From: a virus
Taxonomy: Duplodnaviria > Caudoviricetes
Virus record (IMG/VR): IMGVR_UViG_3300036821_000178
Coordinates: 1-63,853 of that record
Length of the DNA: 63,853 nucleotides
Reading direction: 5' to 3' (one strand)
Position 1 is the stretch's first letter. Every line of letters starts with the position of its first letter. Of this stretch, positions 36,556 through 63,853 are shown piece after piece. The notes under the pieces are model-generated. The model searched no databases. It saw only the letters and a list, made by a program, of their open reading frames with translations, and was not told the DNA's origin. The translations under genes and the position numbers were made by a program.

Positions 36556-36564
36556 CTTTATCTA

Positions 36565-36636: not shown

Positions 36637-36638
36637 CT

Positions 36639-36709: not shown

Positions 36710-36711
36710 CC

Positions 36712-36794
36712 GCCAGGTTGGCTGAGTCAGGACGAAAGCGCCCGGCTGTAAACCGGGATCCACGGACACGGAGGTTCAAATCCTTCACCTGGCA
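36712..36794 (+). tRNA. tRNA-Tyr(GTA)
   Basis: Long variable arm; loop CT GTA AA. Confidence 0.85.
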
Positions 36795-36798
36795 CCTC

Positions 36799-36870
36799 GT
36801 CCCCGGCAGCGGATCTGCCGCGGAGATTCCGAATCTCGGCTGTCCAGTCCGACTCTGGACGGGGGCACCA
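36799..36870 (+). tRNA. tRNA-Arg(CCG)
   Basis: Loop TT CCG AA; reduced D arm; CCA end. Confidence 0.65.
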
Positions 36871-36871
36871 T

Positions 36872-36943
36872 GGCGCATGTCTCGCCGGCGCGGGAGGCGG
36901 CCTGCAAAGCCGTCGCAGCTCGGTTCGACCCCGAGATGCGCCT
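36872..36943 (+). tRNA. tRNA-Cys(GCA)
   Basis: Loop CT GCA AA; U discriminator. Confidence 0.75.
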
Positions 36944-36948
36944 CTGAA

Positions 36949-37024
36949 CGGCCTGTGGCGCAACGGATAGCGCAGCTGCTTCCTAAGCAGAGGGTTGCGG
37001 GTCCGACTCCCGCCAGGCCGGCCA
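36949..37024 (+). tRNA. tRNA-Arg(CCT)
   Basis: Cloverleaf; loop TT CCT AA; CCA end. Confidence 0.85.
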
Positions 37025-40651: not shown

Positions 40652-40704
40652 TGTACGAACCTTCGTACAGTCTCGTGGTGTACGAGAACTCGTACACCAC
40701 GAGA
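40652..40704. promoter_or_regulatory. Tandem palindromic operator-like sites
   Basis: TGTACGA-N4-TCGTACA at 40652-40669 and 40679-40696; the second is nested in a perfect inverted repeat with 16-bp arms (40671-40704). Confidence 0.6.
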
Positions 40705-40714
40705 GGAGAGAATC

Positions 40715-45147: not shown

Positions 45148-48100
45148 GGGGTGACTCCGGGCGGAGCGAAGGGGCATTGAGCAGCATGCTAACGCATGTC
45201 ATCTCTCACAACGGTGCGCCGCGCTGGTACCTATTCTCCAGTTTTTCTGTGCATGCACACTCAGCGCCCTCGATCTCCTCATTGCCCGCGCTTTTAGCAA
45301 AGATCACGAAAAAAGCGTTCGATGGCCGTCGGCACTGCCAGTCAAGCTCGGCCTGCCCGGCGGCGGTGATCTTCCAGATGATGGGCCTTACCCCGGCGGC
45401 GGCCGTCGCCCGGCCGGCCACTTTCACCCAGCCGGCCCGCTCCAGCCGGCGCAGCAGCTGGCCGCACAGGACAATCATCTTCGCCCGCGGCACGGGCTCG
45501 CCTAGGTGCTGCTCTAACTGCGAGGTCGTCATGCCGGCCGGGTGGCAGTCCAGCACCCCCAGCACCCGCAGCGGCCGGCCCCTCATCGCGACGACCATAC
45601 TGCGCTCGCAGGACGCGAGGTGGGATCATCGGTCCATGACGGATCCTGATCCTGATCCGGGTGATCTGGCGCGCGCCGGTGCCGCCGCAGTCCGCGACAA
45701 CGACCTGGCCAAGGAGGCCAGCGCGGCAAGCGCGCCGTTCAGCGTCAGCCTGCGGCGGCGGACAGCGGCGGAACGTCTGCGCTACCTGGCCGGGCTGCTG
45801 CACCGGGGCGAGGCGTACCGGCTGGCTGTCGCAGTGTCCCTGGAGGACCTGGCCCGCGAGCTTGAAGGCAGTCAGGCTGCAGCCAGGGGGTGAGGCGGGA
45901 CGGCCGCCAGCCTAGCTGCCTCGTCGCCAGGCCGGGCGTAATATGAGCGCGGGGTCCCCGGCCGCTCCGGACATGCGCACCCACCGTGCCGGGGGCCCTG
46001 TCAGTCACCCTCACCGCCAGCCCGGGCGTTACCGGGAATCCAAGGTGCACCATGACGGGAACACCCGGCGCCGCGAGCGCCGCCATCACAAGGCGATGAA
46101 GTCCGCCCGGCACGAGACCGGGCACGACGCGAAGATCCGCAAGGCAAAGCGGCGCGGCGTTCGCGAAATCTGCACCATCTGCGGGAGGCCCACATACCAG
46201 CGGCGACGGAAGGCGGCTGACCCTCCGGGGTTAGGCTTGCCCGGTGGGCCAGGACCAGGACCAGGATCTGAAGCGCGAGCAGTACGGGTGGTTCGGCGAG
46301 CCGTGGCCATCAGGCATCTGCTATGACGACGACGGCAGGCTGAGGACTGAGGATCGCAAGGACTTCCCGGCCGGGAAGTCCTGCTTCTGGTGCGGGGTCG
46401 CATTCGACGAGGCGGCCGGCGACGGCGGGAAGGCACTGCCTCATCTCGGCGCGGCCGGGGACACGATGCGCATCGTTCACGCGCACAGGGAGTGCCTGCT
46501 GCGCCAGGTCACCGGAAGCCTGGCGCATCTGGAAGGCCGGTGCTCTTGCCGCGGCGGCGATGACGTCCGCGAGCCTGCAGACCGGCGCGCCGAAGCCCTC
46601 GCCGTCTGGGACCGGATCCGGACCCGGGGGAGCGGCCGGGGTCGGATGGCCGCCCCCCCTCATCCTCATCGCCGCGGGTCAGTGCCTCCCGCGCGGTGAT
46701 CACCGGGAACTGAGCGTAGCGGGAACTGAGCTGCGTGCGGGGCGCTTCCGAGCATCTCGGTACGAGACACCGGAGCCCAGGCAATCGCGTCCTGCCGGAA
46801 TTGCCGGGCCAGGGCGGCCAGCTGCGACTTCAGGGAGCGCGCGCCGGCGGGAGTGGTCCTGATGCACCAGCAGGCGTTCTGGAAGGGCGCGGTCACGGCG
46901 CTGAAGAATGCCCCGTGGATCTCGTCCGCGCTCATGCACACGGCGTCGACAGCCAGGATGAGGTCGTGCCACTCACGCTGAGTCAGCCTGTCGTCACTGT
47001 TGCCGATGCTGACGTAGATATTCATGGCGTCCCCTTCAGGCGCTGGGCGGTGCAGCTCGTACCCCACGGGACTACGCCGCAGCGTCCGCGTGTCGCGTGC
47101 CCGCGAACAGCGCGGCTATGACGGCCTTCTGCCGGTCACTGGGGAGAGGTGCCTGGGCGTCGATCTCGCGCCCGTACTCCTCGTTGTCGCGCTCCTGGCG
47201 CGCGGCCGCGTCGCCAGGCCCGGCGCTCATCGTGCCGCCTCTTCCCACTGGTAGGCGGCCCCGCGCAGGAGATAGGGCGAGCCGGGCCAGCCGGGCAGCG
47301 AGCCCTCGGCGGTCTTCACGTAGCGGCCGGTGCTGTCGTAGTCCAGGACGTCGGGCAGCGGCCAGGTCCACGCCCCGGTCCCGTCGGAGTTGGCCACGCA
47401 CACCTCGCCGTCGCACGGGCCGCCCTCGGCGCGCAGCAGAAAGCGCTCAGGCGCGGTCACGGCCATCCCCGCAGGATGTCACGCACGGGGGGTGCCGGGC
47501 TTATCTCCCCCGGGACGGGGGCGCAGGGGCCGCCGCGCGGGGCCTGCCGGCATCAGGCGCTCAGGGTGAGCCGGATCGCCGTACCAGGCGTGCCAGTAAG
47601 CGTCACGGGCCGGGTCGAGCATCGCGTCCGCGCGGCGAATGATCTGATGCCCGGGGCTGCCCGGTGTGTCACTCATGGTGTCCGTGCACCTCGCCGAGCA
47701 CGTCAGCGGCGCGGGAGTCGTCGTAGTGCGGCGGCTCGTGAACGGTCGCGAGCAGGATGGCGAGCTGGCGGCCTGACATGATGCGCAGCCGGGCCAGGGC
47801 CGCAGACACTGCGGCGGCGGCGATGATGTCAGCGCCGCCGGCCACGGTGACGTCTTCCCGGATCCCGGCGGTCAGGGAGCGGCGCACGCGGGCGTGCAGC
47901 AGGTCGCGCAGCACCTCACGCTCGGCTGCGAGGGACAGGATCTGCGGGCGGCCGGCCTCAGCCATGATCCTCGCCTGCCTGCCGGCTGGCGGCGCTCGCG
48001 TTCACCGCGAGCGTCCACCCGCGGGCGTAAGCGGCTGACACAGCCGACCAGGTCAGCGCGCCGGCGGTATAGCCGGCCATGAGGCCGTAGTCACCGCGCA

Positions 48101-53942: not shown

Positions 53943-54328
53943 GACCGGGCCCCCTGCGGGGCCGGGTGCAGGACAGGCCCGGGCCGGGGCCCGGGTGACG
54001 TCTCGCGCATGACGCGGACCAGGGCGACCCGGGCGGCGCGGCCGCGCTCGCTGAGCAGGGCGCGGACGCGGCGGCGCGAGGGACTGCGGGGCATCTTGCG
54101 CCACACGATGATGAAGGCGGCGGCGTAGACGGCGGCCATCGTCCACTGGGTCAGGATCACCGACAGGAGAAGGCCCGCGGCGAAGGACGCCAGGGCAGCG
54201 GCGTAGGCGCGCAGGACCCGCGTCAGCATGCGGGGCGAGGGAGGATGCAGCAGGGCCGGGAAGACGAGGGCCCAGGAGACGGCGGCGCCTGCCAGCAGCG
54301 GCAGGAGGCAGATGACCGGGGGGCTCAT
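53939..54328 (-). CDS. Membrane protein, similar architecture to 53571-53942
   Basis: Three hydrophobic segments plus Arg-rich tail; TAAACT 7 nt before ATG. Confidence 0.55.
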   Translation of the reverse strand: MSPPVICLLPLLAGAAVSWALVFPALLHPPSPRMLTRVLRAYAAALASFAAGLLLSVILTQWTMAAVYAAAFIIVWRKMPRSPSRRRVRALLSERGRAARVALVRVMRETSPGPRPGPVLHPAPQGARS

Positions 54329-54528
54329 GAGGGTGAGTTTAACCGCGGGCGCGAAGGAGGGAGGGCTTCGGGCGCGGGAAATGCTGCGTGAAAACTGGGA
54401 GGGGGTCGCTCAGGGTGATTCAGGCCGCTCGTGGCGCGCGCGAAAGTGGCGGGGTGCGCGCCCCGCACGCGCGCCGCGCGCGCACCCAGGTCGCACCTGG
54501 CCAGCGAGCTGGCGGTGCGTCTGGGCGT

Positions 54529-54567
54529 GCCTGACTACCGGTAACTCCCGATTACCGGTAGTCAGGC
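54529..54567. repeat. Perfect 16-bp inverted repeat
   Basis: GCCTGACTACCGGTAA-CTCCCGA-TTACCGGTAGTCAGGC. Confidence 0.8.
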
Positions 54568-55020
54568 CGGGCCCGCGCACAGGCCTGAGAGCAACGCTGC
54601 GGGCCCGTGCGTGCGGGCCCGCACGCGACCACCTGAACCGGTCCGTTCGGCGGCCAGCCGTGCTCACGCGCGCGTGCGCGGGGACATGGGGGAGATCTGG
54701 ACGCGCGTGCGCACCCGTCCCCGCATCCCCCCTCACCCCTGATTATTGTCACTCGATGACGATATCCCCTACCTCTCCTGACCAGCCGTAACCGTTTGCC
54801 CTGAACAATCTTGGTTCTACGTCTTGCACAGACGTCCGAACGCACGCTATCTTGGTGTCTGTCGGCAAGGGCGAGAGCCCGGAACCCCCGCCCTTCCCCC
54901 CTACAGGGGAAGGGTCACCGATGGGGCTAACTTCACAACAAGCGCGCTGAGGAGAGATCCCCTGCACTGTCACTACCTCGCAAGAGGCAAGCCAACTGGG
55001 GATGCCCGCAGAGAGGCCCG

Positions 55021-55371
55021 GGGATAGCATCGCCGGCGCAGAGACCATGCGGACTGAAGCGCGGACCCTTCCCCCTACGGGGACAGTGAATATGACCGGG
55101 GCGAACAGGCCCCGGATGCACTAGCGGGTAACTAATCTCCACACGCCTGGTGTGGCACTGCCGGACAATCTTCCGTGTACTCGGACAGTCGGCAAGCCCG
55201 GGGCTGAAGCCAGATCCGCTAGCGCATGGTCCGAGCACTACAGTCCGGCAACGGGCTAGGTTCTCGCGCGTTTGCTCCGCGAGACTCCGGCGTCACAGCA
55301 TGCGGACCGCATATCTCTCTCTCACTCTCACAAGAGTGAGGTACGGGGCTATCCCTTGCGGATGGCCCCGT
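55021..55371 (+). ncRNA. Candidate structured leader/ncRNA upstream of the array
   Basis: Nested complementary segments and several local hairpins; no convincing ORF. Confidence 0.35.
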
Positions 55372-55425
55372 GTCTCGCCCGGAGCGCACGTGCATGCCGC
55401 ACGCGCGCTGAGAGGAGAGACCCGG

Positions 55426-55719
55426 ATGCTTCCCTACATTGAGCGCGGCGAGGCTGGCATGGTCATTCTCGCCGAGGACGACAGCACGGGCACCTACTAC
55501 TGGTCAGAGCCCGTGAGCAGGCTTGACACGCACGCACCCGCGGGCGTGTCTCACGTGGTGCTGGCAGACGGCGGTGTCCTTGCCGGCTGGATAGCCGACA
55601 TGACACCTGTCCGCCCGGGCACGACCGCGCGCGCACTCAGCGCTGACGGTGCCGCTCTGCCTAGCCGGCACGGGGACTTTGAAGGTGCCATGACGGCTGT
55701 TATCGACAACCATTCCTGA
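55426..55719 (+). CDS. Array ORF 1, hypothetical
   Basis: GAGAGGAGAGA RBS then ATG. Confidence 0.7.
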   Translation: MLPYIERGEAGMVILAEDDSTGTYYWSEPVSRLDTHAPAGVSHVVLADGGVLAGWIADMTPVRPGTTARALSADGAALPSRHGDFEGAMTAVIDNHS

Positions 55720-55720
55720 T

Positions 55721-55780
55721 CCTGACCTGTTGCGGGGGAGATGTGCCTGACCGGGCGCGTCTCCCCCGTTGCATGCCAGG
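55721..55780 (+). repeat. Array hairpin R1 (class A variant, CCTG...CAGG ends)
   Basis: CCTGACCTGTTGC-[stem]-GTTGCATGCCAGG. Confidence 0.75.
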
Positions 55781-55808
55781 CAGCATGCACGCGAGAGGAG
55801 AGATCACG

Positions 55809-56033
55809 ATGGCCATCTTCCGCCCGGTTATCGCGGACAACGACACGCCGGCAGACATGACTGAGGACGCGGCGCAGATGTACGCGCGCTCACTTGCCCG
55901 TGCGCACAGGCAGGCAATGTCCGTACTTCAGCGCGGCGGGGACTACCTGATCCTTGCCGCGTCGTCGTTCACCGCCGGCGAGGCGCGGTACGCCGCTGAC
56001 GGCTGGCACCTGATCGGCACGCAGCAGGCCTAG
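55809..56033 (+). CDS. Array ORF 2, hypothetical
   Basis: Array RBS; TAG stop inside R2. Confidence 0.7.
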   Translation: MAIFRPVIADNDTPADMTEDAAQMYARSLARAHRQAMSVLQRGGDYLILAASSFTAGEARYAADGWHLIGTQQA

Positions 56034-56082
56034 ACACTGCCTGTGCTGCCCGGCACCGCCGGGCAGTGCGGAGTGTGCCTAG
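56030..56082 (+). repeat. Array hairpin R2 (class B)
   Basis: CTAGACACTGCCTGTG-[stem]-TGCGGAGTGTGCCTAG. Confidence 0.85.
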
Positions 56083-56112
56083 ACGGGTGCACGAGAGAGG
56101 AGAGAAACCCCG

Positions 56113-56433
56113 ATGGAATTGCATGGCACCTACACGGGCCCCAGCTACGGCACGATGGATTACCGCGACGGACTGGAGAGTTTCACCTCGCTCCGGCAGG
56201 CACAGGAACGTTTCTCCGAGCGCCTTCACACCTCCGGGGCGTGGCCGCTGGATGTCACTCGCGTGACGTTCAGCGATGACGGCTCCGCATGGACCGAAGA
56301 AGCGGAGTTCGTCTGCTTCCCCGCGACCACCTATGAGGATGTGCTGACGCTGTACGTTCCCGGTAATTACGACAACATCGCCTGGCAGATCACGGCCGGA
56401 CCGCACGGCGGGGTCAGGACAGAGCGAGGCTGA
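56113..56433 (+). CDS. Array ORF 3, hypothetical
   Basis: Array RBS. Confidence 0.7.
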   Translation: MELHGTYTGPSYGTMDYRDGLESFTSLRQAQERFSERLHTSGAWPLDVTRVTFSDDGSAWTEEAEFVCFPATTYEDVLTLYVPGNYDNIAWQITAGPHGGVRTERG

Positions 56434-56444
56434 GTGAACCGCAC

Positions 56445-56498
56445 CCAGCGCGTTGCGGGCGGCACGGGATCACTTCCGTGCCGCCCGCTGCCCGCTAG
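56445..56498 (+). repeat. Array hairpin R3 (class A)
   Basis: CCAGCGCGTTGC-[stem]-GCTGCCCGCTAG. Confidence 0.85.
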
Positions 56499-56519
56499 GG
56501 CAAGCGAGAGGAGAGAACG

Positions 56520-56744
56520 ATGGACGGTGTTATCACGCTGGTCAACGGTCACGGGACGTTCACTGCTCCCGCGATCACTGTTCAGCAGCGCCTTAACTGG
56601 TACGCAGGGTTCGGCGATGATGCCCCGCAGCGCGCACGGGCCGATTTTGCGCGCCGGCTGGGAGCGCCGGCGTTCGCCTACTGGGATGTGCCCGACACGC
56701 TTTCACTGTCGGTCATGCTCGTGCACGCGGAGCAGCATTCCTAG
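56520..56744 (+). CDS. Array ORF 4, hypothetical
   Basis: Array RBS; stop inside R4. Confidence 0.7.
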   Translation: MDGVITLVNGHGTFTAPAITVQQRLNWYAGFGDDAPQRARADFARRLGAPAFAYWDVPDTLSLSVMLVHAEQHS

Positions 56745-56793
56745 CGCGTTGCGGGGTGCACGAGACTGGCTCGTGCACCCCGTTGCCCGCTAG
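56741..56793 (+). repeat. Array hairpin R4 (class A)
   Basis: CTAGCGCGTTGC-[stem]-GTTGCCCGCTAG. Confidence 0.9.
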
Positions 56794-56852
56794 GGCAGTA
56801 AGGAACGGCCGCACGGGCGGCAGCTTGATCGCTTGGCATGAGAGGAGAGACA

Positions 56853-57149
56853 GTGAAGGTCAGGACGAACAACACCCCGCGCGACGTCATAGACGGAAGT
56901 CAGCTCACGCCGGCGGAGCGTGCGAAGTTTGACTATCTGGACTGGCCGGCTATCGAGGCCGGGACTGACAGCGCCTTGTTCTTCCGCTATCGCGGGACCG
57001 TGCATGACATGAGTGAGTTCATGCGCACGACAGGCGAGCTCGCAGACGCCGGCTGGCAGGGGTACAGCAGTGACTCCTACTCCTCCGCCACCGTCATCCG
57101 CATTACCGACGATGGCGAAGGAGTAGTTGTCGGCTATGCCACAACCTAG
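56853..57149 (+). CDS. Array ORF 5, hypothetical
   Basis: Array RBS, GTG start; stop inside R5. Confidence 0.7.
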   Translation: MKVRTNNTPRDVIDGSQLTPAERAKFDYLDWPAIEAGTDSALFFRYRGTVHDMSEFMRTTGELADAGWQGYSSDSYSSATVIRITDDGEGVVVGYATT

Positions 57150-57200
57150 CGCGTTGCGTGCGACCTGGGCGACATGTCCGGACCGCGCGCTGCCCGCTAG
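57146..57200 (+). repeat. Array hairpin R5 (class A)
   Basis: Class A arms. Confidence 0.9.
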
Positions 57201-57229
57201 GGCAGAGGTACCCGAGAGGAGAGATCACG

Positions 57230-57451
57230 ATGGACCCTGACGTTGCCCTGTCTAATGCTCGCGACGCCCTGACCCGCTACCGGTTCGCTCAGGATGCGCA
57301 GGAACGGGAAGAAGACCAGACGTCGCCGGCGTCCGATCAGCACCGGGTTAACGCCGAGGATGCGGCTTCCGATCTGGCCGGCGCATTCGAGGCGCTTGAC
57401 GGATGGATGTCCGGGCGGGGATTCGCGCCGGCCGCATGGCCGCGCCCGTAA
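57230..57451 (+). CDS. Array ORF 6, hypothetical
   Basis: Array RBS; MDPD...FEALDGWMSGRGFAPAAW. Confidence 0.7.
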   Translation: MDPDVALSNARDALTRYRFAQDAQEREEDQTSPASDQHRVNAEDAASDLAGAFEALDGWMSGRGFAPAAWPRP

Positions 57452-57455
57452 GTTC

Positions 57456-57505
57456 CTAGCGCGTTGCATGGCTACCGGCCAGCCGGTAACCGTGTTGCCC
57501 GCTAG
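57456..57505 (+). repeat. Array hairpin R6 (class A)
   Basis: Class A arms. Confidence 0.9.
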
Positions 57506-57528
57506 GGCAAACGAGAGGAGAGAACACG

Positions 57529-57843
57529 ATGGCACGAATCGTCGGCACATCCTTTGCTATCGTCGCGCTGGTCATTGCCGGCGCGTTCGCGTGGGCGGCG
57601 CTGACCGGCAGTCCGCCGGCCGTCTCCCGGGTGCCCGGGGGCATCGGGGCCGGGTGCATCGGCACGGGCTACTACCCCTCGCCCGTGCCGTGCACGGCCA
57701 GCCGGCTGCACTCGCTCATGGGGGCAATCGTGCACGGCCAGACCATCACGATTGACGGCCGGACCTACCGCGCAGCTCACTGCCAGCGCGAACGGGGACA
57801 TGCTCCCGGCCAGCGCTCGCACTGGCAGGTGATGTGCGGCTAG
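57529..57843 (+). CDS. Array ORF 7, putative membrane/secreted protein
   Basis: Array RBS; N-terminal hydrophobic segment, four Cys. Confidence 0.7.
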   Translation: MARIVGTSFAIVALVIAGAFAWAALTGSPPAVSRVPGGIGAGCIGTGYYPSPVPCTASRLHSLMGAIVHGQTITIDGRTYRAAHCQRERGHAPGQRSHWQVMCG

Positions 57844-57850
57844 ACCGCAG

Positions 57851-57918
57851 CTGGACACTGCCCGTGATCCCCAGGGAGCTCACTGTAGCTGGCCCCGGGG
57901 GTCGCGGAGTGTGCCCAG
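57851..57918 (+). repeat. Array hairpin R7 (class B, CTGG...CCAG ends)
   Basis: CTGGACACTGCCCGTG-[stem]-CGCGGAGTGTGCCCAG. Confidence 0.85.
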
Positions 57919-57946
57919 ACAGGCACGCGAGAGGAGAGAAGCAAAC

Positions 57947-58285
57947 ATGACCGATGCTCACTGGCACGCTTACAGCAATGTGGCGGGCTATCTGTCAGAG
58001 CAGGATGAGATTCCCGCGATGGACTGGGAAGACGCGCGCGGTTCGCTCGACCACGACATAGAGCGTGAGCGCGATTCGCTGGATTACGCCCCGGAAACAG
58101 ATTCCGATGAAGACGACCGGACTCAGGCGCTCTATAACTCGCTTACAGACGCGCTGACCGCCGTACGGAATGCGACCCCCGGTCAGGACTTCCTGGCCTA
58201 CACCGACGATGGCACGTCGCACACCATACCGACCGCGTGGCAGATCGTCTCGTGCACGGAAACCGACTGCCAGCCGGCAGAGTGA
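57947..58285 (+). CDS. Array ORF 8, acidic hypothetical
   Basis: Array RBS. Confidence 0.7.
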   Translation: MTDAHWHAYSNVAGYLSEQDEIPAMDWEDARGSLDHDIERERDSLDYAPETDSDEDDRTQALYNSLTDALTAVRNATPGQDFLAYTDDGTSHTIPTAWQIVSCTETDCQPAE

Positions 58286-58288
58286 GCG

Positions 58289-58339
58289 CTAGCGCGTTGC
58301 ATGACTCCCGGTCCCCCCGGGAGCCGTGCTGCCCGCTAG
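58289..58339 (+). repeat. Array hairpin R8 (class A)
   Basis: Class A arms. Confidence 0.9.
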
Positions 58340-58362
58340 GGCAGGCGAGAGGAGAGAAAACT

Positions 58363-58716
58363 ATGCAGTGCAAGCACGGCGATGGCGCGATTCACGACGA
58401 CGGCCATCGCCATGACGGTGCAAGCCCGTGCTACGTGCACTCCGCTACCGGAATGCACGTCTGCCACACGGAAGACGGCTACCTCAGCACTAATGCGGAA
58501 CCGCTGACCACTGAGGAGCAGGTCACCCGGGCGCGCCGGCTAGGCGCGGTTCACTACGGGGCCGGCGTCCATCTGGACATGCAAGACGAAGACTCCGCGC
58601 AGCTCATGGACGCGCTGAACGAAACCGGCCCGACCACTGAGGACAACCATCCGGCGCGCTACCGGATGTGCGAGGCATACGAGGATGGCCGGCAGGCAGC
58701 TGCCGGCGGGGCATGA
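58363..58716 (+). CDS. Array ORF 9, Cys/His-rich hypothetical
   Basis: Array RBS. Confidence 0.7.
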   Translation: MQCKHGDGAIHDDGHRHDGASPCYVHSATGMHVCHTEDGYLSTNAEPLTTEEQVTRARRLGAVHYGAGVHLDMQDEDSAQLMDALNETGPTTEDNHPARYRMCEAYEDGRQAAAGGA

Positions 58717-58730
58717 CTGACCCCCCTTGA

Positions 58731-58780
58731 CCTGACCTGTTGCGGGCGGCACGGGATTTACCCCCCGTGCCGCGCGCCGC
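58731..58780 (+). repeat. Array hairpin R9 (class A variant, right arm lost)
   Basis: CCTGACCTGTTGC left arm identical to R1; inner stem like R3; no right arm or RBS. Confidence 0.65.
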
Positions 58781-58952
58781 GCCGCGCGCTGGCCGCATGG
58801 TCACCAGCGCCGCCTGGCGCGGCGGGCACGGGCGCCACCGCGGGCACCGTAAGGCGCGGTAAGTTGCACGGCCCCGGGTGGCACCTGCATAACCTGATCG
58901 CCGCTCTTGTCCTTAGCTGGGCAGAGCGCGCACTGCGGAGGAGGTACCAGCA

Positions 58953-59006
58953 CTAGGCGCGTTGCGGCGCGCACGGGATCACCCGTGCGCGCCGTTGCCC
59001 GCCTAG
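58953..59006 (+). repeat. Array hairpin R10 (class A with extra G-C pair)
   Basis: CTAGGCGCGTTGC-[stem]-GTTGCCCGCCTAG. Confidence 0.9.
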
Positions 59007-59027
59007 GGCAGATGAGAGGAGAGATAC

Positions 59028-59447
59028 ATGAGCGAGATCACCGGCTACACGTTCAGCGCTGACCAGTACTGCCCCGACGACATGCGCCAGATGACGCTAG
59101 AGCGTCTCTGGACACTAGGCGAGCGACGTGCTGACAGGTTCGCGCCGGGTGCGGAAGATGTCCTAGATGAACTGGCACGCATCCTCGGCGTTAACCGCGC
59201 CGATGAATACTCATTCGACTCCGGTTACTTCCCGAAGGTCATATTCGGCAGCATGGCGCACGACGGATGCAGCACGGCCAGCGGGTACGACCCGGGCCAG
59301 TGCGGGGACGCATGCGGAGCATGCGGTTACCCGCTGGGCGGCCCATGCCCGAACGGATACGAGGGCCCGAACACCATTCCGGCCGGGACAGGTGACGCTG
59401 TCGCCCGCACTGCTCACTACGAGGAGCGCACGGCCGACCGGCGCTAG
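59028..59447 (+). CDS. Array ORF 11, hypothetical
   Basis: Array RBS; DEYSFDSGYFPKVIF, CGACG; stop inside R11. Confidence 0.7.
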   Translation: MSEITGYTFSADQYCPDDMRQMTLERLWTLGERRADRFAPGAEDVLDELARILGVNRADEYSFDSGYFPKVIFGSMAHDGCSTASGYDPGQCGDACGACGYPLGGPCPNGYEGPNTIPAGTGDAVARTAHYEERTADRR

Positions 59448-59496
59448 CGCGTTGCGTGCGGCGCGGGATCTTCCCGCGCGGCGCGTTGCCCGCTAG
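59444..59496 (+). repeat. Array hairpin R11 (class A)
   Basis: Class A arms. Confidence 0.9.
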
Positions 59497-59522
59497 GGCA
59501 CGAGAGAGGAGAGACTGTAACC

Positions 59523-59903
59523 ATGAGTGACAGCCTTAACGACATCATGGAATTTGACCACGTGATACAGGTCAGCCCCGATGGCACCGTCAGTGACGGG
59601 CCGGCGGGCATCTACGCCCCGGAATCGGTGATCGATACCGACGATGACGGTCAGATCGGGCTGCCCGACGAGACGGAATGGCAGGAATCCCTTAGCCGGC
59701 AGGGCTGGGAAGTCCTGACGGGCTACTCCGGTCAGGATCGCTACCCGGGTCCGATCATGCACGCCTCCGAGTCCATCGGCGGCGCGCTGGCCGGCCACAT
59801 CCGGGCGACCCCCGGGCTGTGGGTCGCGGTGTCCGTCGAGACGCTAGACGATTCCGGAGAGGCGACCGGCTGGGCGGTATGCCACCGTGACCTGCCGGAA
59901 TGA
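59523..59903 (+). CDS. Array ORF 12, hypothetical
   Basis: Array RBS; LTGYSGQDRYPGPIMHASESIGG. Confidence 0.7.
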   Translation: MSDSLNDIMEFDHVIQVSPDGTVSDGPAGIYAPESVIDTDDDGQIGLPDETEWQESLSRQGWEVLTGYSGQDRYPGPIMHASESIGGALAGHIRATPGLWVAVSVETLDDSGEATGWAVCHRDLPE

Positions 59904-59909
59904 CAAGCG

Positions 59910-59964
59910 CTAGCGCGTTGCGTGCGGCCTGGACGACACATCCGGGGCGCGCGTTGCCCGCTAG
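59910..59964 (+). repeat. Array hairpin R12 (class A)
   Basis: Class A arms. Confidence 0.9.
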
Positions 59965-59991
59965 GGCACCTAACCGAGAGGAGAGATCACG

Positions 59992-60360
59992 ATGGACTCA
60001 CCAATAGAGACACGTCATGTGGAATCCGGCGGTCTGGGCTTCACTATCTCGCTCTACCGGGATCCGGACGTGGATATCACCGATTCCGACGCCTATTCGG
60101 AAGCCGACATCGCTGCATGGAAGCGTGATGAATGGACTTTCGTAACGGTGGAGGTCCGTTCGGACGTCGGCGGGATCTATGACGACCTCGGCGCGTGCGC
60201 GTTCGGGACCGGCGACGGATGGACCGTCAGTATGGACAGGATGGTTACCGAGTATCCCGTGCCCGACATGCTGAGCGCGGTCAAGCGCAAGATGCGGCGC
60301 GACCTGCCCGCCATGCGCGCCGAGATCGACGCTGCCATAGCCGCAACCAAGAGCGCCTAG
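59992..60360 (+). CDS. Array ORF 13, paralog of ORF 16
   Basis: Array RBS; DIAAWKRDEWTFV, EYPVPD; stop inside R13. Confidence 0.75.
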   Translation: MDSPIETRHVESGGLGFTISLYRDPDVDITDSDAYSEADIAAWKRDEWTFVTVEVRSDVGGIYDDLGACAFGTGDGWTVSMDRMVTEYPVPDMLSAVKRKMRRDLPAMRAEIDAAIAATKSA

Positions 60361-60410
60361 CGCGTTGCGTGATCCCCGGGCGCAAGCCCGGGGGTGGCGC
60401 TGCCCGCTAG
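60357..60410 (+). repeat. Array hairpin R13 (class A)
   Basis: Class A arms. Confidence 0.9.
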
Positions 60411-60432
60411 GGCAATGAGAGGAGAGATCACG

Positions 60433-60855
60433 ATGGCGCAGTTCAGGACCGGCGACGAAATCGCGGTCGACGACCCGAAGTACCCCGGCGTGTGGATTGT
60501 CCGGAAGGTCAACCCGACCACGTACGCGGCCGACCCGAAGGAAGGCGGGCGCGGGCTGAAGCTGCCGCACGCCATGGCGCTGCCGGCCAGCGAGGCCCGG
60601 GAGGCGGGCCCCGTGGGCATCGCGGCACCCGAGCGCCCGGAAGGACTCCGCACGGGCGCGCTCGTGCGCATCAAGCCGGGCCGCGTGCGCGGGATCAGTG
60701 ACCCCGCCGCGCTGTTCGTGGTGTTCGCGGACAAGTACGACACGGTGAACGTGACCATGCTCGGAGGCGACCCGGGCCGGCGCTACTGGCGCTTGCCGCC
60801 CAGCTGTATTACCGAGGTGATTGACCCGGCCCGGGTGACCGTGGCCGCGTCCTAG
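60433..60855 (+). CDS. Array ORF 14, possible tandem SH3-like barrels
   Basis: Array RBS; FRTGDEI and LRTGALV repeats; stop inside R14. Confidence 0.65.
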   Translation: MAQFRTGDEIAVDDPKYPGVWIVRKVNPTTYAADPKEGGRGLKLPHAMALPASEAREAGPVGIAAPERPEGLRTGALVRIKPGRVRGISDPAALFVVFADKYDTVNVTMLGGDPGRRYWRLPPSCITEVIDPARVTVAAS

Positions 60856-60901
60856 CGCGTTGCATGGCCCCTAGGCGACCGGGGACCGTGTTGCCCGCTA
60901 G
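60852..60901 (+). repeat. Array hairpin R14 (class A)
   Basis: Class A arms. Confidence 0.9.
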
Positions 60902-60927
60902 GGCAGAGGTACTAAGAGAGGAGAGAT

Positions 60928-61122
60928 ATGGAATACGTGGGATTCACGGTGTCCTTTTCGCTCGACAACGCCGAGGCGGAGGAGATGGGCACGGACATGG
61001 CCGTTCCCGCTTACCTCCGGCAAGTCGCTGACAAGGCGGAGGACGGTCAGACATCCGGCACTGTCCGCGACGGCAACGGCGTGACCATCGGCAGTTTCGA
61101 GGTCACCCGCACGCCGGCCTAG
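60928..61122 (+). CDS. Array ORF 15, hypothetical
   Basis: Array RBS; LRQVADK...GTVRDGNGVTIG; stop inside R15. Confidence 0.7.
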   Translation: MEYVGFTVSFSLDNAEAEEMGTDMAVPAYLRQVADKAEDGQTSGTVRDGNGVTIGSFEVTRTPA

Positions 61123-61171
61123 GCGCGTTGCGTGGTCCCCGGTTCACCCGGGGCCCGCGTTGCCCGCCTAG
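61119..61171 (+). repeat. Array hairpin R15 (class A with extra G-C pair)
   Basis: CTAGGCGCGTTGC-[stem]-GTTGCCCGCCTAG. Confidence 0.9.
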
Positions 61172-61199
61172 GGCAGATCGGAACGAGAGGAGAGGCAGA

Positions 61200-61604
61200 A
61201 TGAGCAGGCCATTTGAGACCCGTCATATCGAGGACAAGGGGCTTGGCTTCACGGTGGAGCTGTGGCCAGACGAGGACTCGACGACCGACGACGCCGAGTG
61301 CTACTCGCCCTCGGACATCGCGGCATGGCAGCGTGACGAGTGGTCGTTTATCGGCGTCGTCGTGCGCTCCGACACCGGGGACTTGCAAGAGTCCCTGTGG
61401 TCAGTCGAGTACGGCTCCTGTCCGGCCGAGACAGAGCCGTTCCAGGGCGGCATGCACGAGGCGTGGACCGTCGATACGGACAAGATCGTTTCCGAGTACC
61501 CAGTGCCGGACCTGCTGTCCGAACTGCGCTCACGCATGCACAAGGAACTTCCGGCGCTGCGCGAGCAGGTCAACGCGGCCATAGCCGCGACCGAGAGAGA
61601 CTAA
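61200..61604 (+). CDS. Array ORF 16, paralog of ORF 13
   Basis: Array RBS; DIAAWQRDEWSFI, EYPVPD. Confidence 0.75.
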   Translation: MSRPFETRHIEDKGLGFTVELWPDEDSTTDDAECYSPSDIAAWQRDEWSFIGVVVRSDTGDLQESLWSVEYGSCPAETEPFQGGMHEAWTVDTDKIVSEYPVPDLLSELRSRMHKELPALREQVNAAIAATERD

Positions 61605-61608
61605 GGGG

Positions 61609-61664
61609 CTAGACACTGCCCGTGTCACCCGGGGCGATTCCCGGATGGCGCGGAGTGTGCCTAG
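61609..61664 (+). repeat. Array hairpin R16 (class B)
   Basis: Class B arms. Confidence 0.9.
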
Positions 61665-61698
61665 ATCGCACACTGGCGAGAGGAGAGGTAAGAGACGC

Positions 61699-61947
61699 AT
61701 GGACATTTACACCGCCCTGTGCGACCCGATCGACGGGCACAGCCAGAAAACGGACCTGGTAGGGGTTTTCAGCACCGAGCCCAAGGCGCGCGACGCATGC
61801 CAGGTCCACGCCGACGAGGACGGAGACACCGGCCCGGACGACCCGGGCCGGCTGGTCCTGCAATGGAACGAGGACAGCGCCGAGGGGCGCGACGGCCGCA
61901 AGTACGTCGTGATTCTGGGCGACCTTGACCGGCGAACGGGCACCTAA
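61699..61947 (+). CDS. Array ORF 17, hypothetical
   Basis: Array RBS; LVGVFSTEPKA; TAA stop inside R17. Confidence 0.7.
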   Translation: MDIYTALCDPIDGHSQKTDLVGVFSTEPKARDACQVHADEDGDTGPDDPGRLVLQWNEDSAEGRDGRKYVVILGDLDRRTGT

Positions 61948-61997
61948 CGCACAGCGTGACCCCCGGGCAGGTGCCCGGGGGCTGCGCTGCCCGCTAG
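61944..61997 (+). repeat. Array hairpin R17 (class A, degenerate left arm)
   Basis: CTAACGCACAGC-[stem]-GCTGCCCGCTAG. Confidence 0.8.
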
Positions 61998-62018
61998 GGC
62001 AGACGAGAGGAGAGATGG

Positions 62019-62669
62019 ATGCTGTCAGAGATGATGGAAGTCCGCGACGCTACCCGGGCGTGGCAGCACGCGGCCGGCCGGCAGCGGGCGGACGCGGCTA
62101 GCGAGCTGGCCCTGCGCGCTGAGGAGCTGATGCAGGCCCTCGCATGGTGGGGCGTGGACACACCCGAGGCGCGCGCCCTGAAAGGCGCGCTGGGCGTGTA
62201 CCAGGCCGATCCGGAGACGTGGTATCGCAGTCCCGATGCCCCCGGCTCGCGCGCGGTCACAGATGCCATCGTGACCGCGTTCGATGCGTTCGCCCGGAGC
62301 GCCCACGGCCGCCAGGCCGAGGCCGGCGACCGGGATCCCGTAAGGGCCATGCCGGCCGAGGCCGGGCGCTGGGTATCGGAGGCGGCGTTCGGAGTGCCGG
62401 CCAACTGCGGCCAGATGGTGCTGCTGGCCTGCGCCCGCGGGTGGGTCAATCCCGCCGCGCTGGCACTGGCCGGGCGTGCCGTGGGCACGGGCCCGGCGCT
62501 GACCGAGGACGAGTCGTGCGCGCTGTGCGAGAAGTACGCGATCGAGGCTGAGTACTGGCTCAATGGGCACTGCGCCCCGCCCGGCTACCTGTTCGGGTGG
62601 AAAGATCTTTCGTTCTACTTCGAGAGCGCGGAATGGTGGGCCGAGCACGACGGGCCCGACCAGCTTTAG
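62019..62669 (+). CDS. Array ORF 18, hypothetical
   Basis: Array RBS; 216 aa. Confidence 0.7.
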   Translation: MLSEMMEVRDATRAWQHAAGRQRADAASELALRAEELMQALAWWGVDTPEARALKGALGVYQADPETWYRSPDAPGSRAVTDAIVTAFDAFARSAHGRQAEAGDRDPVRAMPAEAGRWVSEAAFGVPANCGQMVLLACARGWVNPAALALAGRAVGTGPALTEDESCALCEKYAIEAEYWLNGHCAPPGYLFGWKDLSFYFESAEWWAEHDGPDQL

Positions 62670-62728
62670 CTAGACACTGCCCGTGGCCACCCGGCGATGG
62701 ATGCCGGGTGACTGCGGAGTGTGCCTAG
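62670..62728 (+). repeat. Array hairpin R18 (class B)
   Basis: Class B arms. Confidence 0.9.
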
Positions 62729-62763
62729 ACCCCTAGGAACACTGACGAGAGGAGAGACGGGCT

Positions 62764-63033
62764 ATGCCGAAATACGACGTGGAAGTCAGCCACACAATCA
62801 CGGTCACGGTGCCGGTTCAGGCGGATTCGCCGGCAAAGGCGCACGAGACCGTAAGCCGGCGCGATTTCCCGCTGCCCCCGCGCGATCAGTGGACGGGCGG
62901 CAAAGACTGGTCTTATGTCGTATATGGCGAGGACGGCACCAAGCTGGGCGGCGACGACGGCGACGGAAGCGGCTACGGGTCCTGTGAGGACCTCCCCAGC
63001 GAGCACGAGTACGGCTGGTATGAGGAGAACTAG
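62764..63033 (+). CDS. Array ORF 19, hypothetical
   Basis: Array RBS; YDVEVSHTITVTVPVQADS..KA. Confidence 0.7.
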   Translation: MPKYDVEVSHTITVTVPVQADSPAKAHETVSRRDFPLPPRDQWTGGKDWSYVVYGEDGTKLGGDDGDGSGYGSCEDLPSEHEYGWYEEN

Positions 63034-63040
63034 ACCGGAC

Positions 63041-63093
63041 CTAGCGCGTTGCGGGGTGCGCGAGCATGTCTCGCGCACCCCGTTGCCCGCTAG
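63041..63093 (+). repeat. Array hairpin R19 (class A)
   Basis: Class A arms; inner stem related to R4. Confidence 0.9.
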
Positions 63094-63118
63094 GGGCAGC
63101 GCGAGAGGAGAAACGACC

Positions 63119-63376
63119 ATGAGGACTGCCGCCCAGAACAGCGTGAATCGCGCGGCGAAGTTCCATCCGGAAACGACTGACGACGAGCGGCCGGCTATCG
63201 AGGTTGCCGGCGTGCTGGTGTTCACCTACGTGAACGAGGATGGAATCCTGTGCGTCTCAGTCGATCTGGATACACCGGACCGTGACGTGTTCCCCGCCGA
63301 ATGCGTGCCACTGCGCGTGACGGTACAGGGTAATACGGTGTTCGCGGCCGACCAGGACGGCACCACCTGTAGCTAG
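63119..63376 (+). CDS. Array ORF 20, hypothetical
   Basis: Array RBS; stop inside R20. Confidence 0.7.
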   Translation: MRTAAQNSVNRAAKFHPETTDDERPAIEVAGVLVFTYVNEDGILCVSVDLDTPDRDVFPAECVPLRVTVQGNTVFAADQDGTTCS

Positions 63377-63426
63377 ACACTGCCCGTGGCGCGCGGGGAA
63401 ACCCGCGCGTTGCGGAGTGTGCCTAG
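63373..63426 (+). repeat. Array hairpin R20 (class B)
   Basis: Class B arms. Confidence 0.9.
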
Positions 63427-63457
63427 AACGGCACGCGAGAGAGGAGAGATGAGGGGA

Positions 63458-63853
63458 ATGGAACGATTCCGGCTAGTGGTCAAGGTCAGCCCGGATGACC
63501 CGGGCAGTGCGGCGCAAGAGGCGAAAGATCTCCTGTACGCGCCGGGCGCGCCCACCAGCAAGAGCGTTGCGGCCACGGTCGCATACCTCGCCACGCTGGA
63601 CGGCGGCGCGTCTGCGGGCTCACACGTCTATACCACGCTGCCCGTGTTTCTGGGCGAGCTGTGGGAGCGTGCAGGTAACTACCTGCTCACGTGGCGCGGG
63701 CCCGCTATCAAGCTGTACGAGATCCACGCCGACGAGCCTGCCGAAAAGGTTCTGTGTGGAGCACACGCGGGCGTTCACGACGAGAGGCCGGATTGCGCCT
63801 GGCCCCATTTCTTCCACGGACAGGGCCCGATGCCCGTTGTCGGTCACCCGCTT
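63458..63853 (+). CDS. Array ORF 21, hypothetical, runs off window end
   Basis: Array RBS; frame open from MERFRLVVKV to the end. Confidence 0.65.
   Translation, partial: MERFRLVVKVSPDDPGSAAQEAKDLLYAPGAPTSKSVAATVAYLATLDGGASAGSHVYTTLPVFLGELWERAGNYLLTWRGPAIKLYEIHADEPAEKVLCGAHAGVHDERPDCAWPHFFHGQGPMPVVGHPL

Follow-up and report, generated by a model that had tools for sequence, protein, structure and literature searches.

Twenty intergenic elements separate the small + strand ORFan genes of a soil phage at about 55.7-63.4 kb (55721..63449, + strand) of the window, by which we mean the whole stretch of 63,853 nucleotides analysed, and they are very probably sense-strand RNA structures with two alternative pairings. 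Comparison of their sequences indicates that the repeats are real, conserved RNA hairpins, each of which appears to tie an upstream stop signal to a downstream start signal. The best explanation, which we put forward tentatively, is that they are mRNA boundary modules placed between the cistrons of a polycistronic phage operon.

An array of elements with conserved pairing

The contig, which is linear (CheckV completeness 66%), has a G+C content of about 69%, 24 tRNA matches and a gene for a band-7 protein. Its last array gene runs off the contig end at 63853, so that the array may extend further. Thirteen elements belong to class A, five to class B and one (R1) to class C, while R9 is a remnant that retains a class C 5' strand and the inner hairpin, lacks a proper 3' strand and a Shine-Dalgarno (SD) motif, and sits within a 311-nt non-coding gap. 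With at most one mismatch allowed, the SD motif is found 26 times where 6.0 would be expected, and 20 of these occurrences fall within 55410-63448. All features are on the + strand (CM, covariance model):

55382..55420 (+), pre-array hairpin, from folding; abuts the operon's first SD (55410), no long hairpin upstream
55721..55789 (+), R1, class C; CM 52.5 bits, folds; outer helix CCTG/CAGG, compensated 3' hairpin TGCATGC..GCATGCA; SD 55793
56030..56092 (+), R2, class B; upstream stop TAG within CTAG; SD 56095
56444..56502 (+), R3, class A with 5' end CCCAG; CM 73.2 bits; SD 56506
56740..56797 (+), R4, class A; CM 79.3 bits; stop TAG within CTAG; SD 56840, after a longer than usual spacer containing one additional small hairpin
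57145..57204 (+), R5, class A; CM 71.6 bits; stop within CTAG; SD 57214
57455..57509 (+), R6, class A; CM 73.2 bits; SD 57513
57851..57926 (+), R7, class B; compensated outer pair CTGG/CCAG; SD 57929
58289..58343 (+), R8, class A; CM 68.3 bits; SD 58347
58731..58803 (+), R9, degenerate remnant, from sequence; partial CM hit of 21.9 bits
58953..59010 (+), R10, class A; CM 65.6 bits; matched extra G:C in outer helix; SD 59014
59444..59500 (+), R11, class A; CM 72.1 bits; stop within CTAG; SD 59504
59910..59968 (+), R12, class A; CM 71.2 bits; SD 59976
60357..60414 (+), R13, class A; CM 72.6 bits; stop within CTAG; SD 60417
60852..60905 (+), R14, class A; CM 67.4 bits; stop within CTAG; SD 60916
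61119..61175 (+), R15, class A; CM 63.4 bits; matched extra G:C; stop within CTAG; SD 61185
61609..61671 (+), R16, class B; SD 61678
61944..62001 (+), R17, class A variant; CM 66.0 bits; 5'-strand stop TAA; SD 62005
62670..62742 (+), R18, class B with extended 3' hairpin; SD 62747
63041..63098 (+), R19, class A; CM 71.8 bits; SD 63103
63373..63434 (+), R20, class B; stop TAG within CTAG; SD 63439

A preliminary description of this DNA had proposed that the array conserves structure through compensatory changes, and every sequence feature that it listed was found in its place when the sequence was parsed. Most copies have CTAG/CTAG as their closing helix, R7 has CTGG/CCAG, R1 has CCTG/CAGG, and R10 and R15 have CTAGG/CCTAG, where the extra G:C is matched on both strands; the inner stems of R4 and R19 do differ by a single A-T to G-C swap. 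Pairing exceeds that of shuffled sequences: 92.5% of the 322 cells of a 14-copy class A alignment are paired, against 79.1% in shuffles (none of 500 reaching it), and 92.6% of 529 cells in a 23-row alignment, A3, that includes relatives and one antisense hit, although such cell counts exaggerate the number of independent events because copies of the same genome are kin. Eleven of the 23 class A pairs have changed on both sides, ten of them, in the window, within the inner stem, where 10 of 12 pairs are so changed; this GC-rich inner hairpin varies in sequence among copies and always keeps its pairing. For the closing helix, the variants that had been taken as covariation are present, but support from the window copies is thin, because classes A and B contribute only one covarying pair each and that of class B (R7) is matched by 105 of 500 shuffles. 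It becomes solid with relatives, since A3 retains two-sided changes at 14 of 23 pairs, including the closing-helix pairs 6-96, 8-93 and 11-90, and the class-swap test described below agrees.

The idea that the sense strand is the one that folds was borne out as well. Comparison of folding energies makes the + strand the more stable in 16 of the 20 window elements (mean -3.6 kcal/mol, Wilcoxon p=0.012) and in 39 of 44 elements from four viral genomes, where 151 of 1101 sense-strand pairs are G.U, against 59 of 1004 for the antisense.

Two partners for one strand

For the 3' strand of the closing helix there are two possible partners. Pairing with the 5' strand yields one long hairpin of about 22-25 bp, broken by mismatches (22-25 bp in the predicted structures of class A); pairing with the 5-8 nt that follow yields a small hairpin, stacked on the inner hairpin and placed just before the extended Shine-Dalgarno GAGAGGAGAGA. 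The small hairpin directly adjoins the inner stem, and 2-10 nt separate it from this polypurine run, which is followed by the start codon. The alternative 3' hairpin, the embedded stop and the fixed short distance to the SD had escaped the preliminary description.

Both pairings have been assessed by a class-swap test using an energy model. Of the 48 elements parsed in four viral genomes, 43 supplied the 23 sequence classes compared. Strands of the same class gave -11.1 versus -7.3 kcal/mol for crossed classes in the outer helix, and -11.5 versus -6.2 kcal/mol in the 3' hairpin (permutation p<=5e-5 in each case), so that, as modelled, the two pairings are both class-specific. In 11 parsed class A copies the long form is the more stable by 4.9-9.9 kcal/mol, and in R1 and four class B copies the two forms differ by -0.6 to +4.1 kcal/mol; given the preference of 5-10 kcal/mol in class A, an occupied 5' strand may be a precondition for the second state there. 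The small hairpin and the SD form a unit even without the long hairpin: at two genes that lack the latter, the same SD motif (40701 and 55410) is again directly adjoined by a hairpin.

The 5' strand, for its part, is marked by translation stops. In 39 of 44 elements a stop triplet is located 7-11 nt ahead of the inner hairpin, versus 9.5% of random windows, and in several elements the 5' strand has stops in two or even three frames. At 31 gene-to-element junctions the distance from the first base of the true stop to the start of the inner hairpin is 7-24 nt, being 7-11 nt in 19 of them and 15-24 nt in the other 12. This geometry might suggest ribosome-gated translational coupling without any cleavage: the terminating ribosome would open the basal helix, the 3' strand would pass into the small hairpin, and the two stacked hairpins would loop out about 55 nt, bringing the SD to within a few nucleotides, in space, of that ribosome for re-initiation. 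The position of the stops, the reach of the small hairpin from the end of the inner stem almost to the SD, and the retention of the design in phages of different hosts would all fit. Yet masking the footprint of a ribosome at the stop hardly alters the predicted accessibility of the SD (0.64 versus 0.65, 19 elements), which leaves the small hairpin without an obvious unmasking role; each gene has its own very strong SD, so that coupling is unnecessary for initiation; the 12 junctions with a distant stop fit poorly, and the SD-adjacent hairpin of operon-first genes is left unexplained. We regard coupling of this kind as rather unlikely, while keeping it in mind.

Stable GC-rich hairpins immediately after genes, with alternative 1:2 and 2:3 pairings like those of leader attenuators, could also be seen as factor-independent terminators or attenuators devoid of a U-tract, the long or the small hairpin stopping or pausing RNA polymerase depending on upstream translation. 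Intrinsic termination by mycobacterial RNA polymerase depends on a U-tract. Neither hairpin is followed by a T-run, the array holds three terminator-like sites against 3.5 expected, none of them at an element, and some 20 serial terminators would silence the distal genes, all of which makes this explanation highly improbable.

Internal motifs and the question of a dedicated protein

From the two-fold symmetry of internal motifs it had been proposed that the long form is bound or cut by a dimeric protein (GYUGC/GYUGC in class A, GC bulges in class B). The class A motif is there, GTTGC lying opposite GYTGC with T.T and C.C oppositions, and its mismatches look selected, since in the class A copies of five genomes C56 faces C, A or U at position 11 and never G, and the T.T is retained everywhere except in R17, where the 5' strand CTAACGCACAGC gives an A-T pair instead. 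The class B drawing, in which the 5' strand CTAG-ACACT-GC-C faces the 3' strand G-AGTGT-GC-CTAG, is possible as pairing (55 of 55 cells in the five-copy alignment), but it is the minimum-energy fold in none of the five copies. TGC is indeed found on both strands, with a simpler cause than dyad recognition, as on the 5' side GC closes off the inner stem, and on the 3' side TGC begins the alternative hairpin TGCCC-GCTA-GGGCA. The symmetry amounts to a 5-nt quasi-palindrome around the T.T and to the palindrome CTAG; being local and class-specific, it does not require a dimeric enzyme. Although conserved within the window, the motifs vary by class and are missing from the related elements of two other genomes (G002 and G003) and of Mycobacterium phage Bongo, which keep the architecture with different internal loops. 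The conserved letters are accounted for by three-way pairing constraints, no candidate protein is common to the four viral genomes, and a survey of 85 ORFs turned up neither a nuclease nor an RNA-binding family. A dimeric protein is thus neither needed nor supported, and we consider it very improbable.

The archaeal bulge-helix-bulge splice motif has a 3-4-3 geometry. The class B drawing recalls it by its two bulges on opposite strands around a short helix, and differs from it, as had already been conceded, by being 2-5-2; another fold is preferred, and no splicing endonuclease was found in the contig (66% of the genome). Class B was therefore rejected as a site of this type.

Boundaries between cistrons, in this phage and others

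The same design is present in Bongo (JN699628, cluster M), at 10 of its 11 junctions of 60-130 nt, where an outer helix with a stop codon at its 5' base encloses a variable inner hairpin, and a short spacer lies between the alternative 3' hairpin and a polypurine SD; the class A CM matches its gene 153/152 junction (27.5 bits, E 1.6e-4). Both phages have tRNA arrays and a band-7 protein, and they differ in arm sequences, SD motif and host; no nucleotide-level similarity of the window to Bongo was found. Rhodococcus phage Braxoaddie has one copy (CM 66 bits). Because the design recurs in these two phages, the window elements can be counted as members of an actinophage element type. Cluster M mycobacteriophages reportedly contain 'conserved repeated sequences' (Pope et al. 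2014, J Virol 88:2461); the repeats of the right-end operon of Bongo may be the same thing, and thus already described. Part of the hairpin-after-stop pattern may moreover be generic, GC-rich hairpins directly after stop codons being common in other actinophages, of which TurkishDelight is an example.

In phages T7 and SP82, RNase III processing hairpins lie between early genes. They resemble the present elements as repeated, related hairpins with internal mismatches between the cistrons of early operons, with a helix of about two turns followed by a strong SD-like polypurine run. We know of no T7 or SP82 site with a stop codon inside the helix and an alternative 3' hairpin; hosts here are actinobacteria. 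Downstream of the SP82 site a polypurine stretch reportedly acts as a 5' stabiliser (Hue et al. 1995, as cited in PMC7509114). In cluster K mycobacteriophages (PMC3203893), start-associated sequences are a conserved SD-containing motif upstream of non-structural gene starts, extended in about half of the cases by preceding imperfect inverted repeats of 17 bp, with spacers of 4-13 bp, whose function was said to be unknown; the departures were held not to support RNA pairing, and DNA-binding sites were favoured. The likeness is an SD motif just before starts with inverted repeats preceding it; in the array, unlike there, compensatory changes maintain the pairing and it is the sense strand that folds better.

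The elements could alternatively mark boundaries in DNA, their conserved ends serving as recombination linkers or sites for the shuffling of [SD-ORF-stop] cassettes. Integron attC sites are imperfect inverted repeats directly after promoterless cassettes, and it is their bottom strand that folds. Conserved ends, a variable but paired centre and conserved unpaired bases are common to attC and to the array, where, unlike attC, the top (sense) strand is favoured and the SD is part of the unit. The PeSLs of T4-type phages (PMC2839356) unite an effective terminator with a strong early promoter of the sigma-70 type and are thought to drive modular shuffling. They too are repeated stem-loop modules between small ORFan genes, whereas the array has no promoter-like site, within elements or elsewhere, and no terminator tail. 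All 20 array genes are ORFans without a Pfam hit over cut-off; families D15 and D17 are two paralogous cassettes bordered exactly by elements; R9 resembles the scar of a lost cassette; a second contig of the same metagenome has the same 3' strand and SD with different spacings, and identical 16-mers occur in otherwise unrelated arrays. Against this, the bias of G.U pairs and stability toward the sense strand suggests RNA, inner stems that are hypervariable yet always paired would be unnecessary for homologous recombination, the attC core consensus is unmatched, and no tyrosine recombinase or other integrase was found in the contig. As a primary function, a DNA boundary is very improbable, and shuffling is better seen as a by-product.

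We may then return to boundary modules of the mRNA, for which a role in cistron-wise processing, stability or translation seems to us about evenly balanced. No RNA run was found to contain the stretch. Each element would be a cis-acting structure of the sense-strand mRNA that separates two cistrons and combines a stop triplet, often the real stop of the upstream gene, in the 5' strand of the basal helix, a GC-rich inner hairpin, the two-way 3' strand, and the polypurine SD with its start codon. The long form would be the resting state, until the 5' strand is removed by an endonucleolytic cut or covered by a ribosome terminating on the embedded stop, whereupon the 3' strand would refold as the small hairpin. 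The candidate for cutting the long helix is a double-strand-specific enzyme of the RNase III type, assumed to be the host's because neither an RNase III gene nor that of another nuclease was found in the contig, and its involvement specifically is doubtful; RNase E might instead cut in the short single-stranded linker. The mycobacterial RNase E cleaves single-stranded RNA immediately upstream of cytidines (PMC10641625), and in mycobacteria a processed mRNA is stabilised by a polypurine sequence located 4 bp ahead of the katG start (PMC2358910).

The array proteins show no relationship between the genomes compared, and this suggests that what they share is machinery of the host, not a partner encoded by the phage. 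The upstream cistron would retain a structured 3' end, the downstream one would begin with a hairpin and a ribosome-bound polypurine SD, and identical boundaries would incidentally permit cassettes to be shuffled by recombination. The net result would be that each small gene is independently stable and independently translated.

Setting and conservation of the element array

The structures that the preliminary description saw between the small genes at the right end of the window are real, and they are more elaborate than first described. A typical element is made of a 5' strand, which in most cases holds a stop triplet, an inner hairpin and a 3' strand; when the two outer strands pair, they close an outer helix around the inner hairpin, giving what we call the long form, and an SD follows. 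Numbered R1 to R20 in their order, the elements, and the gap that holds the most degraded of them, are placed as follows:

55721-63434, + strand: 20 intergenic elements (13 of class A; R1, a class C variant; 5 of class B; the remnant R9)
58717-59027, 311 nt: non-coding gap containing the remnant R9, which has a class C 5' strand and inner hairpin, without the 3' strand and without the SD

The record is linear, with a completeness of 66% (CheckV) and a G+C content of about 65-75%. No near-identical DNA was found for it among the phage records searched, and its large terminase is 53% identical to the homologues of Streptomyces phage TurkishDelight and Actinoplanes phage phiAsp2. The structural genes occupy the left side of the window, on the - strand, where a MuF-like head protein (8227-10404) and the portal protein (10409-14071) each carry an intein-type domain (Intein_splicing, Hint_2). 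The same strand encodes a DpdA homologue at 25544-26449 (PF23859, E 2e-63) and a protein with a PAPS-reductase domain at 44188-45177, and a 7-deazaguanine base is probably put into the phage DNA. On the + strand, Rfam gives 24 tRNA matches at 32219-37021, among which the one at 35126-35212 scores as tRNA-Sec (49.5 bits, for a cut-off of 47). Small + strand genes then run from 55.4 kb to the contig end, and none of the 20 array genes has a Pfam match over the cut-off. Since the last of them (63449-63853) is truncated by the contig end, in a linear and incomplete record, the array may continue beyond the window. Two paralogous array genes, 59992-60360 and 61200-61604 (repeat families D15/D17), have DNA that is 75-79% identical; their likeness stops at the flanking elements, the 3' neighbour being a class A element for one and a class B element for the other. 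The gap that contains R9, for its part, resembles a scar left where a cassette was lost.

A covariance model trained on 14 window copies (class A and R1) recovers all 14 in the + orientation, with scores of 52.5-79.3 bits, against 10.1-41.7 bits for the antisense images; inside the array its sole further match is a partial one to R9, and outside the array no match in the window has an E value below 0.05. In the Rfam scan no family attains its gathering score for the elements, the window giving tRNAs only, and at E<=1 the array yields only three sub-threshold chance matches. The motif GAGAGGAGAG comes after every element but R9; it is counted 26 times where 6.0 are expected, and its 20 array sites (55410-63448) each lie 4-12 nt upstream of a start codon.

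All the sequence details listed in the preliminary description are indeed present, and pairing is retained in 92.5% of the 322 cells of the class A alignment, against 79.1% after shuffling, a level that none of 500 shuffles equalled. Both sides have changed in 11 of 23 pairs, 10 of which belong to the inner stem. The proposal that the closing helix covaries has therefore to be divided. Within the window this helix varies little, and the single compensated pair of class B, in R7, was reached by 105 of 500 shuffles; when relatives are included, in a class A alignment of 23 rows (one of them an antisense match), both-side changes appear in 14 of 23 pairs, three of which are closing-helix pairs.

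Two pairings of the 3' strand and a built-in stop codon

In the closing helix, the 3' strand has a possible alternative partner in the next 5-8 nt, with which it forms a small hairpin (TGCCC-GCTA-GGGCA in class A, GTGTGCC-loop-GGCACNC in class B, TGCATGC-loop-GCATGCA in R1). This hairpin begins immediately 3' of the inner stem, and 2-10 nt separate its end from the SD. Minimum-energy folding gives the long hairpin for 12 of the 20 elements and the inner plus small hairpins for 7, including all five of class B, while R9 is degenerate. The 11 parsed class A copies prefer the long form, with 22-25 predicted pairs in this class, by 4.9-9.9 kcal/mol; the two forms are closer in R1 and in four copies of class B, at -0.6 to +4.1 kcal/mol, three of the 19 window elements having been left unparsed and out of this comparison.

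That both pairings matter is indicated by an alignment-free test, in which the pairing energy of a strand with its own partner was compared with that obtained with the partners of other classes, over 43 of 48 elements that could be parsed in the window and three related viral contigs, falling into 23 sequence classes. The outer helix gives -11.1 kcal/mol with its own partner and -7.3 with the others, the small hairpin -11.5 and -6.2 (permutation p<=5e-5 in both cases). Pairing energies that are specific to a class in this way imply that the outer helix and the small hairpin are both maintained by coordinated change. Automatic parsing dropped 4-5 of the 48 elements from this test, as from those on strand and on stop triplets. 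The small hairpin together with its SD may be a separate unit: a hairpin adjoins the same SD motif at two genes (40701 and 55410) that have no long hairpin. At 40674-40711, outside the array, this is a perfect 11-bp hairpin adjoining the GAGAGGAGAGA motif, as at 55382-55420.

The preliminary description took frequent G-T pairs as favouring the folding of the sense strand, and the count bears this out, with 151 G.U pairs among 1101 in the sense orientation against 59 among 1004 in antisense. The energy comparison of the two strands that it proposed goes the same way: the sense strand gives the better fold in 16 of the 20 window elements (p=0.012) and the more stable one in 39 of the 44 elements compared overall. 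All elements point the same way as their genes, no sigma-70-like promoter was found in 54000-63853, and no hairpin followed by a T-run occurs at an element in the array. Taken together, the strand bias, the co-orientation and the lack of promoter or T-run suggest a structure that exists in messenger RNA rather than in double-stranded DNA. The GC-rich hairpin and T-run of an intrinsic terminator were also looked for, and no terminator-like site coincides with any element.

In 39 of 44 elements, as compared with 9.5% of random windows taken from these arrays, the 5' strand has a stop triplet that starts 7-11 nt upstream of the inner hairpin, and several 5' strands hold stops in two or three frames. 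When open reading frames were called from an SD and a start codon, 31 of 57 had a parsed element no more than 60 nt from their end, the other 26 calls being uncounted owing to a wrong start or to the lack of a parsed element downstream. At these 31 junctions the distance from the stop, counted from its first base, to the start of the inner hairpin is 7-24 nt, and at 19 of them it is 7-11 nt.

Relatives in cultured and uncultured phages

The three viral contigs with related arrays (G001, G002 and G003) were found through an exact 16-mer taken from the 3' strand of class A. The window shares several virion proteins with G001, and no similarity was detectable between the array proteins of the window and those of any of the three. 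A second contig of the source metagenome (11.7 kb) matches only the 3' strand and SD of three elements, 621 and 1024 nt apart, and it seems to come from another phage, which would have these boundaries around other cassettes. Two hairpin 16-mers gave 81 and 41 oriented matches in viral contigs, with a hairpin-plus-SD context in 6 and 1 of them, 4 and 1 of these being in G001-G003. The wider scans were negative: a gapped pattern found at least 118 stretches in viral contigs, and the model matched none of 85 loci (80 of these stretches and 5 others); a 15-mer found at least 120 stretches in bacterial genomes, with no model match in the 80 loci examined; and a model search of whole bacterial genomes, a weak test in that only 35 candidates were scored per genome, found nothing in 3 genomes and then in 151 Actinomycetes.

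Among cultured phages, six that infect Rhodococcus equi have one class A copy each, that of Braxoaddie scoring 66.3 bits at the junction of genes 91 and 92. Braxoaddie also places the same 19-nt start-associated sequence (ending ...CGGAGCAAGGCAATG) before nearly all its right-arm genes at 4354-12407, and it encodes an RtcB-like ligase. A further case is that of Mycobacterium phage Bongo, of cluster M (JN699628), which has a right-end operon of small genes. The design recurs at 10 of the 11 junctions there that measure 60-130 nt: the stop stands at the 5' base of the outer helix and is followed by a variable inner hairpin, then by an alternative 3' hairpin and, after a short A/C spacer, by a polypurine SD. 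There the inner hairpin follows the stop by 10-19 nt, and the sense strand is more stable, again in 10 of 11 junctions each. The class A model recognizes one Bongo junction at 27.5 bits (E 1.6e-4), the others remaining below 14 bits. Window elements thus share with those of the cluster M type the stop in the 5' strand, the variable inner hairpin, the second small hairpin before a polypurine SD, and a detectable similarity, and the type to which the array belongs has members among cultured actinophages too. The type recurs with different sequences in phages of Mycobacterium, of Rhodococcus and of uncultured soil hosts with a high G+C content. In Bongo (24392-33335) the 5' strand adjoining the inner stem reads GGAGGA, which is SD-like and pairs with a CTCT run, a feature absent from the window elements. 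The abstract of the cluster M paper, by Pope and colleagues in J Virol in 2014, reportedly mentions unusual conserved repeated sequences and suggests a novel regulation of transcription and translation, and the paper may already cover part of the present reading; in the full texts searched, no description of such elements was found.

Other resemblances led elsewhere. A class B query of cultured phages returned only three chance-level matches, and the match in Gordonia phage Wizard (E about 3, in a convergent gap) is put down to chance; the 50-bp motif of phage Vardy is an unrelated promoter motif, and the class A 3'-arm motif was not seen in the first 50 kb of phiAsp2. TurkishDelight, the closest cultured relative, has hairpins after its stops that are a different element: a nearly identical long GC-rich hairpin follows a CTGAC stop at 31013-31107 and 32365-32459, several other gaps hold hairpins and then promoter-like TTGACA boxes, and these repeats constitute a different family.

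Known systems, candidate enzymes and a possible working

Similar in position are the SAS/ESAS of cluster K mycobacteriophages, in which a conserved SD-containing motif lies a few bases before the starts, as GAGAGGAGAG does here. The ESAS have 17-bp inverted repeats with a 4-13 bp spacer, departures from which do not keep pairing, and their authors regarded RNA pairing as being without support (PMC3203893). The window elements differ in having arms of about 12 nt, with a covarying hairpin of 30-45 nt between them, and in keeping their pairing. The PeSLs of T4-type phages, described as combining promoter and terminator (PMC2839356), also have hairpins, whereas the elements are without sigma-70-type promoter and their hairpins are followed by no T-run. 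Integron attC sites do not agree with the elements in their defining features: integrase (PF00589) has no match in the 66%-complete contig; measured against the core and inverse-core consensus, both window arms read GYTGC on the same strand, and the 3' arm has G-C-C after GTT where purines are expected; finally, attC folds from the bottom strand, while 39 of 44 window-type elements are more stable on the sense strand.

It had been proposed that the dyad symmetry of the folded motifs is recognized by a dimeric enzyme. The symmetry exists, but it is local, being confined to the palindrome CTAG and to a quasi-palindrome of 5 nt around T.T. The letters that are conserved also take part in other pairs, the 5' GC closing the inner stem and the 3' TGC opening the small hairpin; moreover, the three-strand architecture persists in the related elements of G002, G003 and Bongo, whose internal loops are different. 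The mismatches do look selected, the position opposite C56 being filled by C, A or U, never by G, in class A copies from five genomes; a tuning of the balance between the two folds would explain them as well as recognition by a protein. The earlier caution that class B does not match a bulge-helix-bulge was well placed, with 2-nt bulges around 5 bp instead of 3-nt bulges around a 4-bp helix. An archaeal site of this kind is rejected on these sizes, and the splicing endonuclease (PF01974) has no match in the contig. The combined reading, dimer and bulge-helix-bulge, is not supported. More generally, the contig as it stands, 66% complete, encodes no integrase, RNase III, splicing endonuclease or RtcB. 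As for RNase III, the predicted class A long form does offer the two turns or so (20 bp or more) of double-stranded RNA of its processing sites, and we consider it an unlikely identity for the enzyme.

We may instead picture the elements as follows. Either a ribosome that terminates on the stop within the element or a cut by an endonuclease would open the long form; the 3' strand thus freed would fold into the small hairpin, so that the upstream cistron would retain a structured 3' end and the downstream one would start with a hairpin and a ribosome-bound polypurine SD. This working fits the SD-adjoining hairpins at 40701 and 55410, and it fits what is reported of mycobacteria, where a polypurine run before katG stabilizes processed mRNA (PMC2358910) and RNase E cuts single-stranded RNA before cytidines (PMC10641625). 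A classical coupling through release of the SD finds no support: masking 30 nt around the stop leaves the unpaired probability of the SD at 0.65, against 0.64 (19 elements), the predicted accessibility being independent of the fold state. For the mechanism as a whole, we see the chances as evenly balanced. A broader view, which we offer tentatively and lean against, is that the elements could be ribosome-gated three-strand RNA switches, a class not yet formalized, in which termination on the stop of the basal helix would flip the long form into the small SD-proximal hairpin and so set cutting, protection or re-initiation for each cistron, and which would be common to early-type operons of distantly related actinophages (cluster M, Rhodococcus and uncultured soil phages).

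Phage early operons are rich in small genes whose function is not known, and in actinobacteria little is understood of the way in which the output of these operons is balanced. The element type described here is a compact boundary that brings together a stop codon, two hairpins, of which the first is stable and the second conditional, and a very strong ribosome-binding site, and it is directly testable, since phage Bongo grows on the laboratory strain M. smegmatis mc2155. Should its two states answer to a host RNase or to the terminating ribosome, the element would be a natural and simple means of making the cistrons of a long message independent of one another. Were this true, it might provide an insulator part for the design of operons in bacteria of high G+C content, as well as a handle on mRNA processing in mycobacteria.
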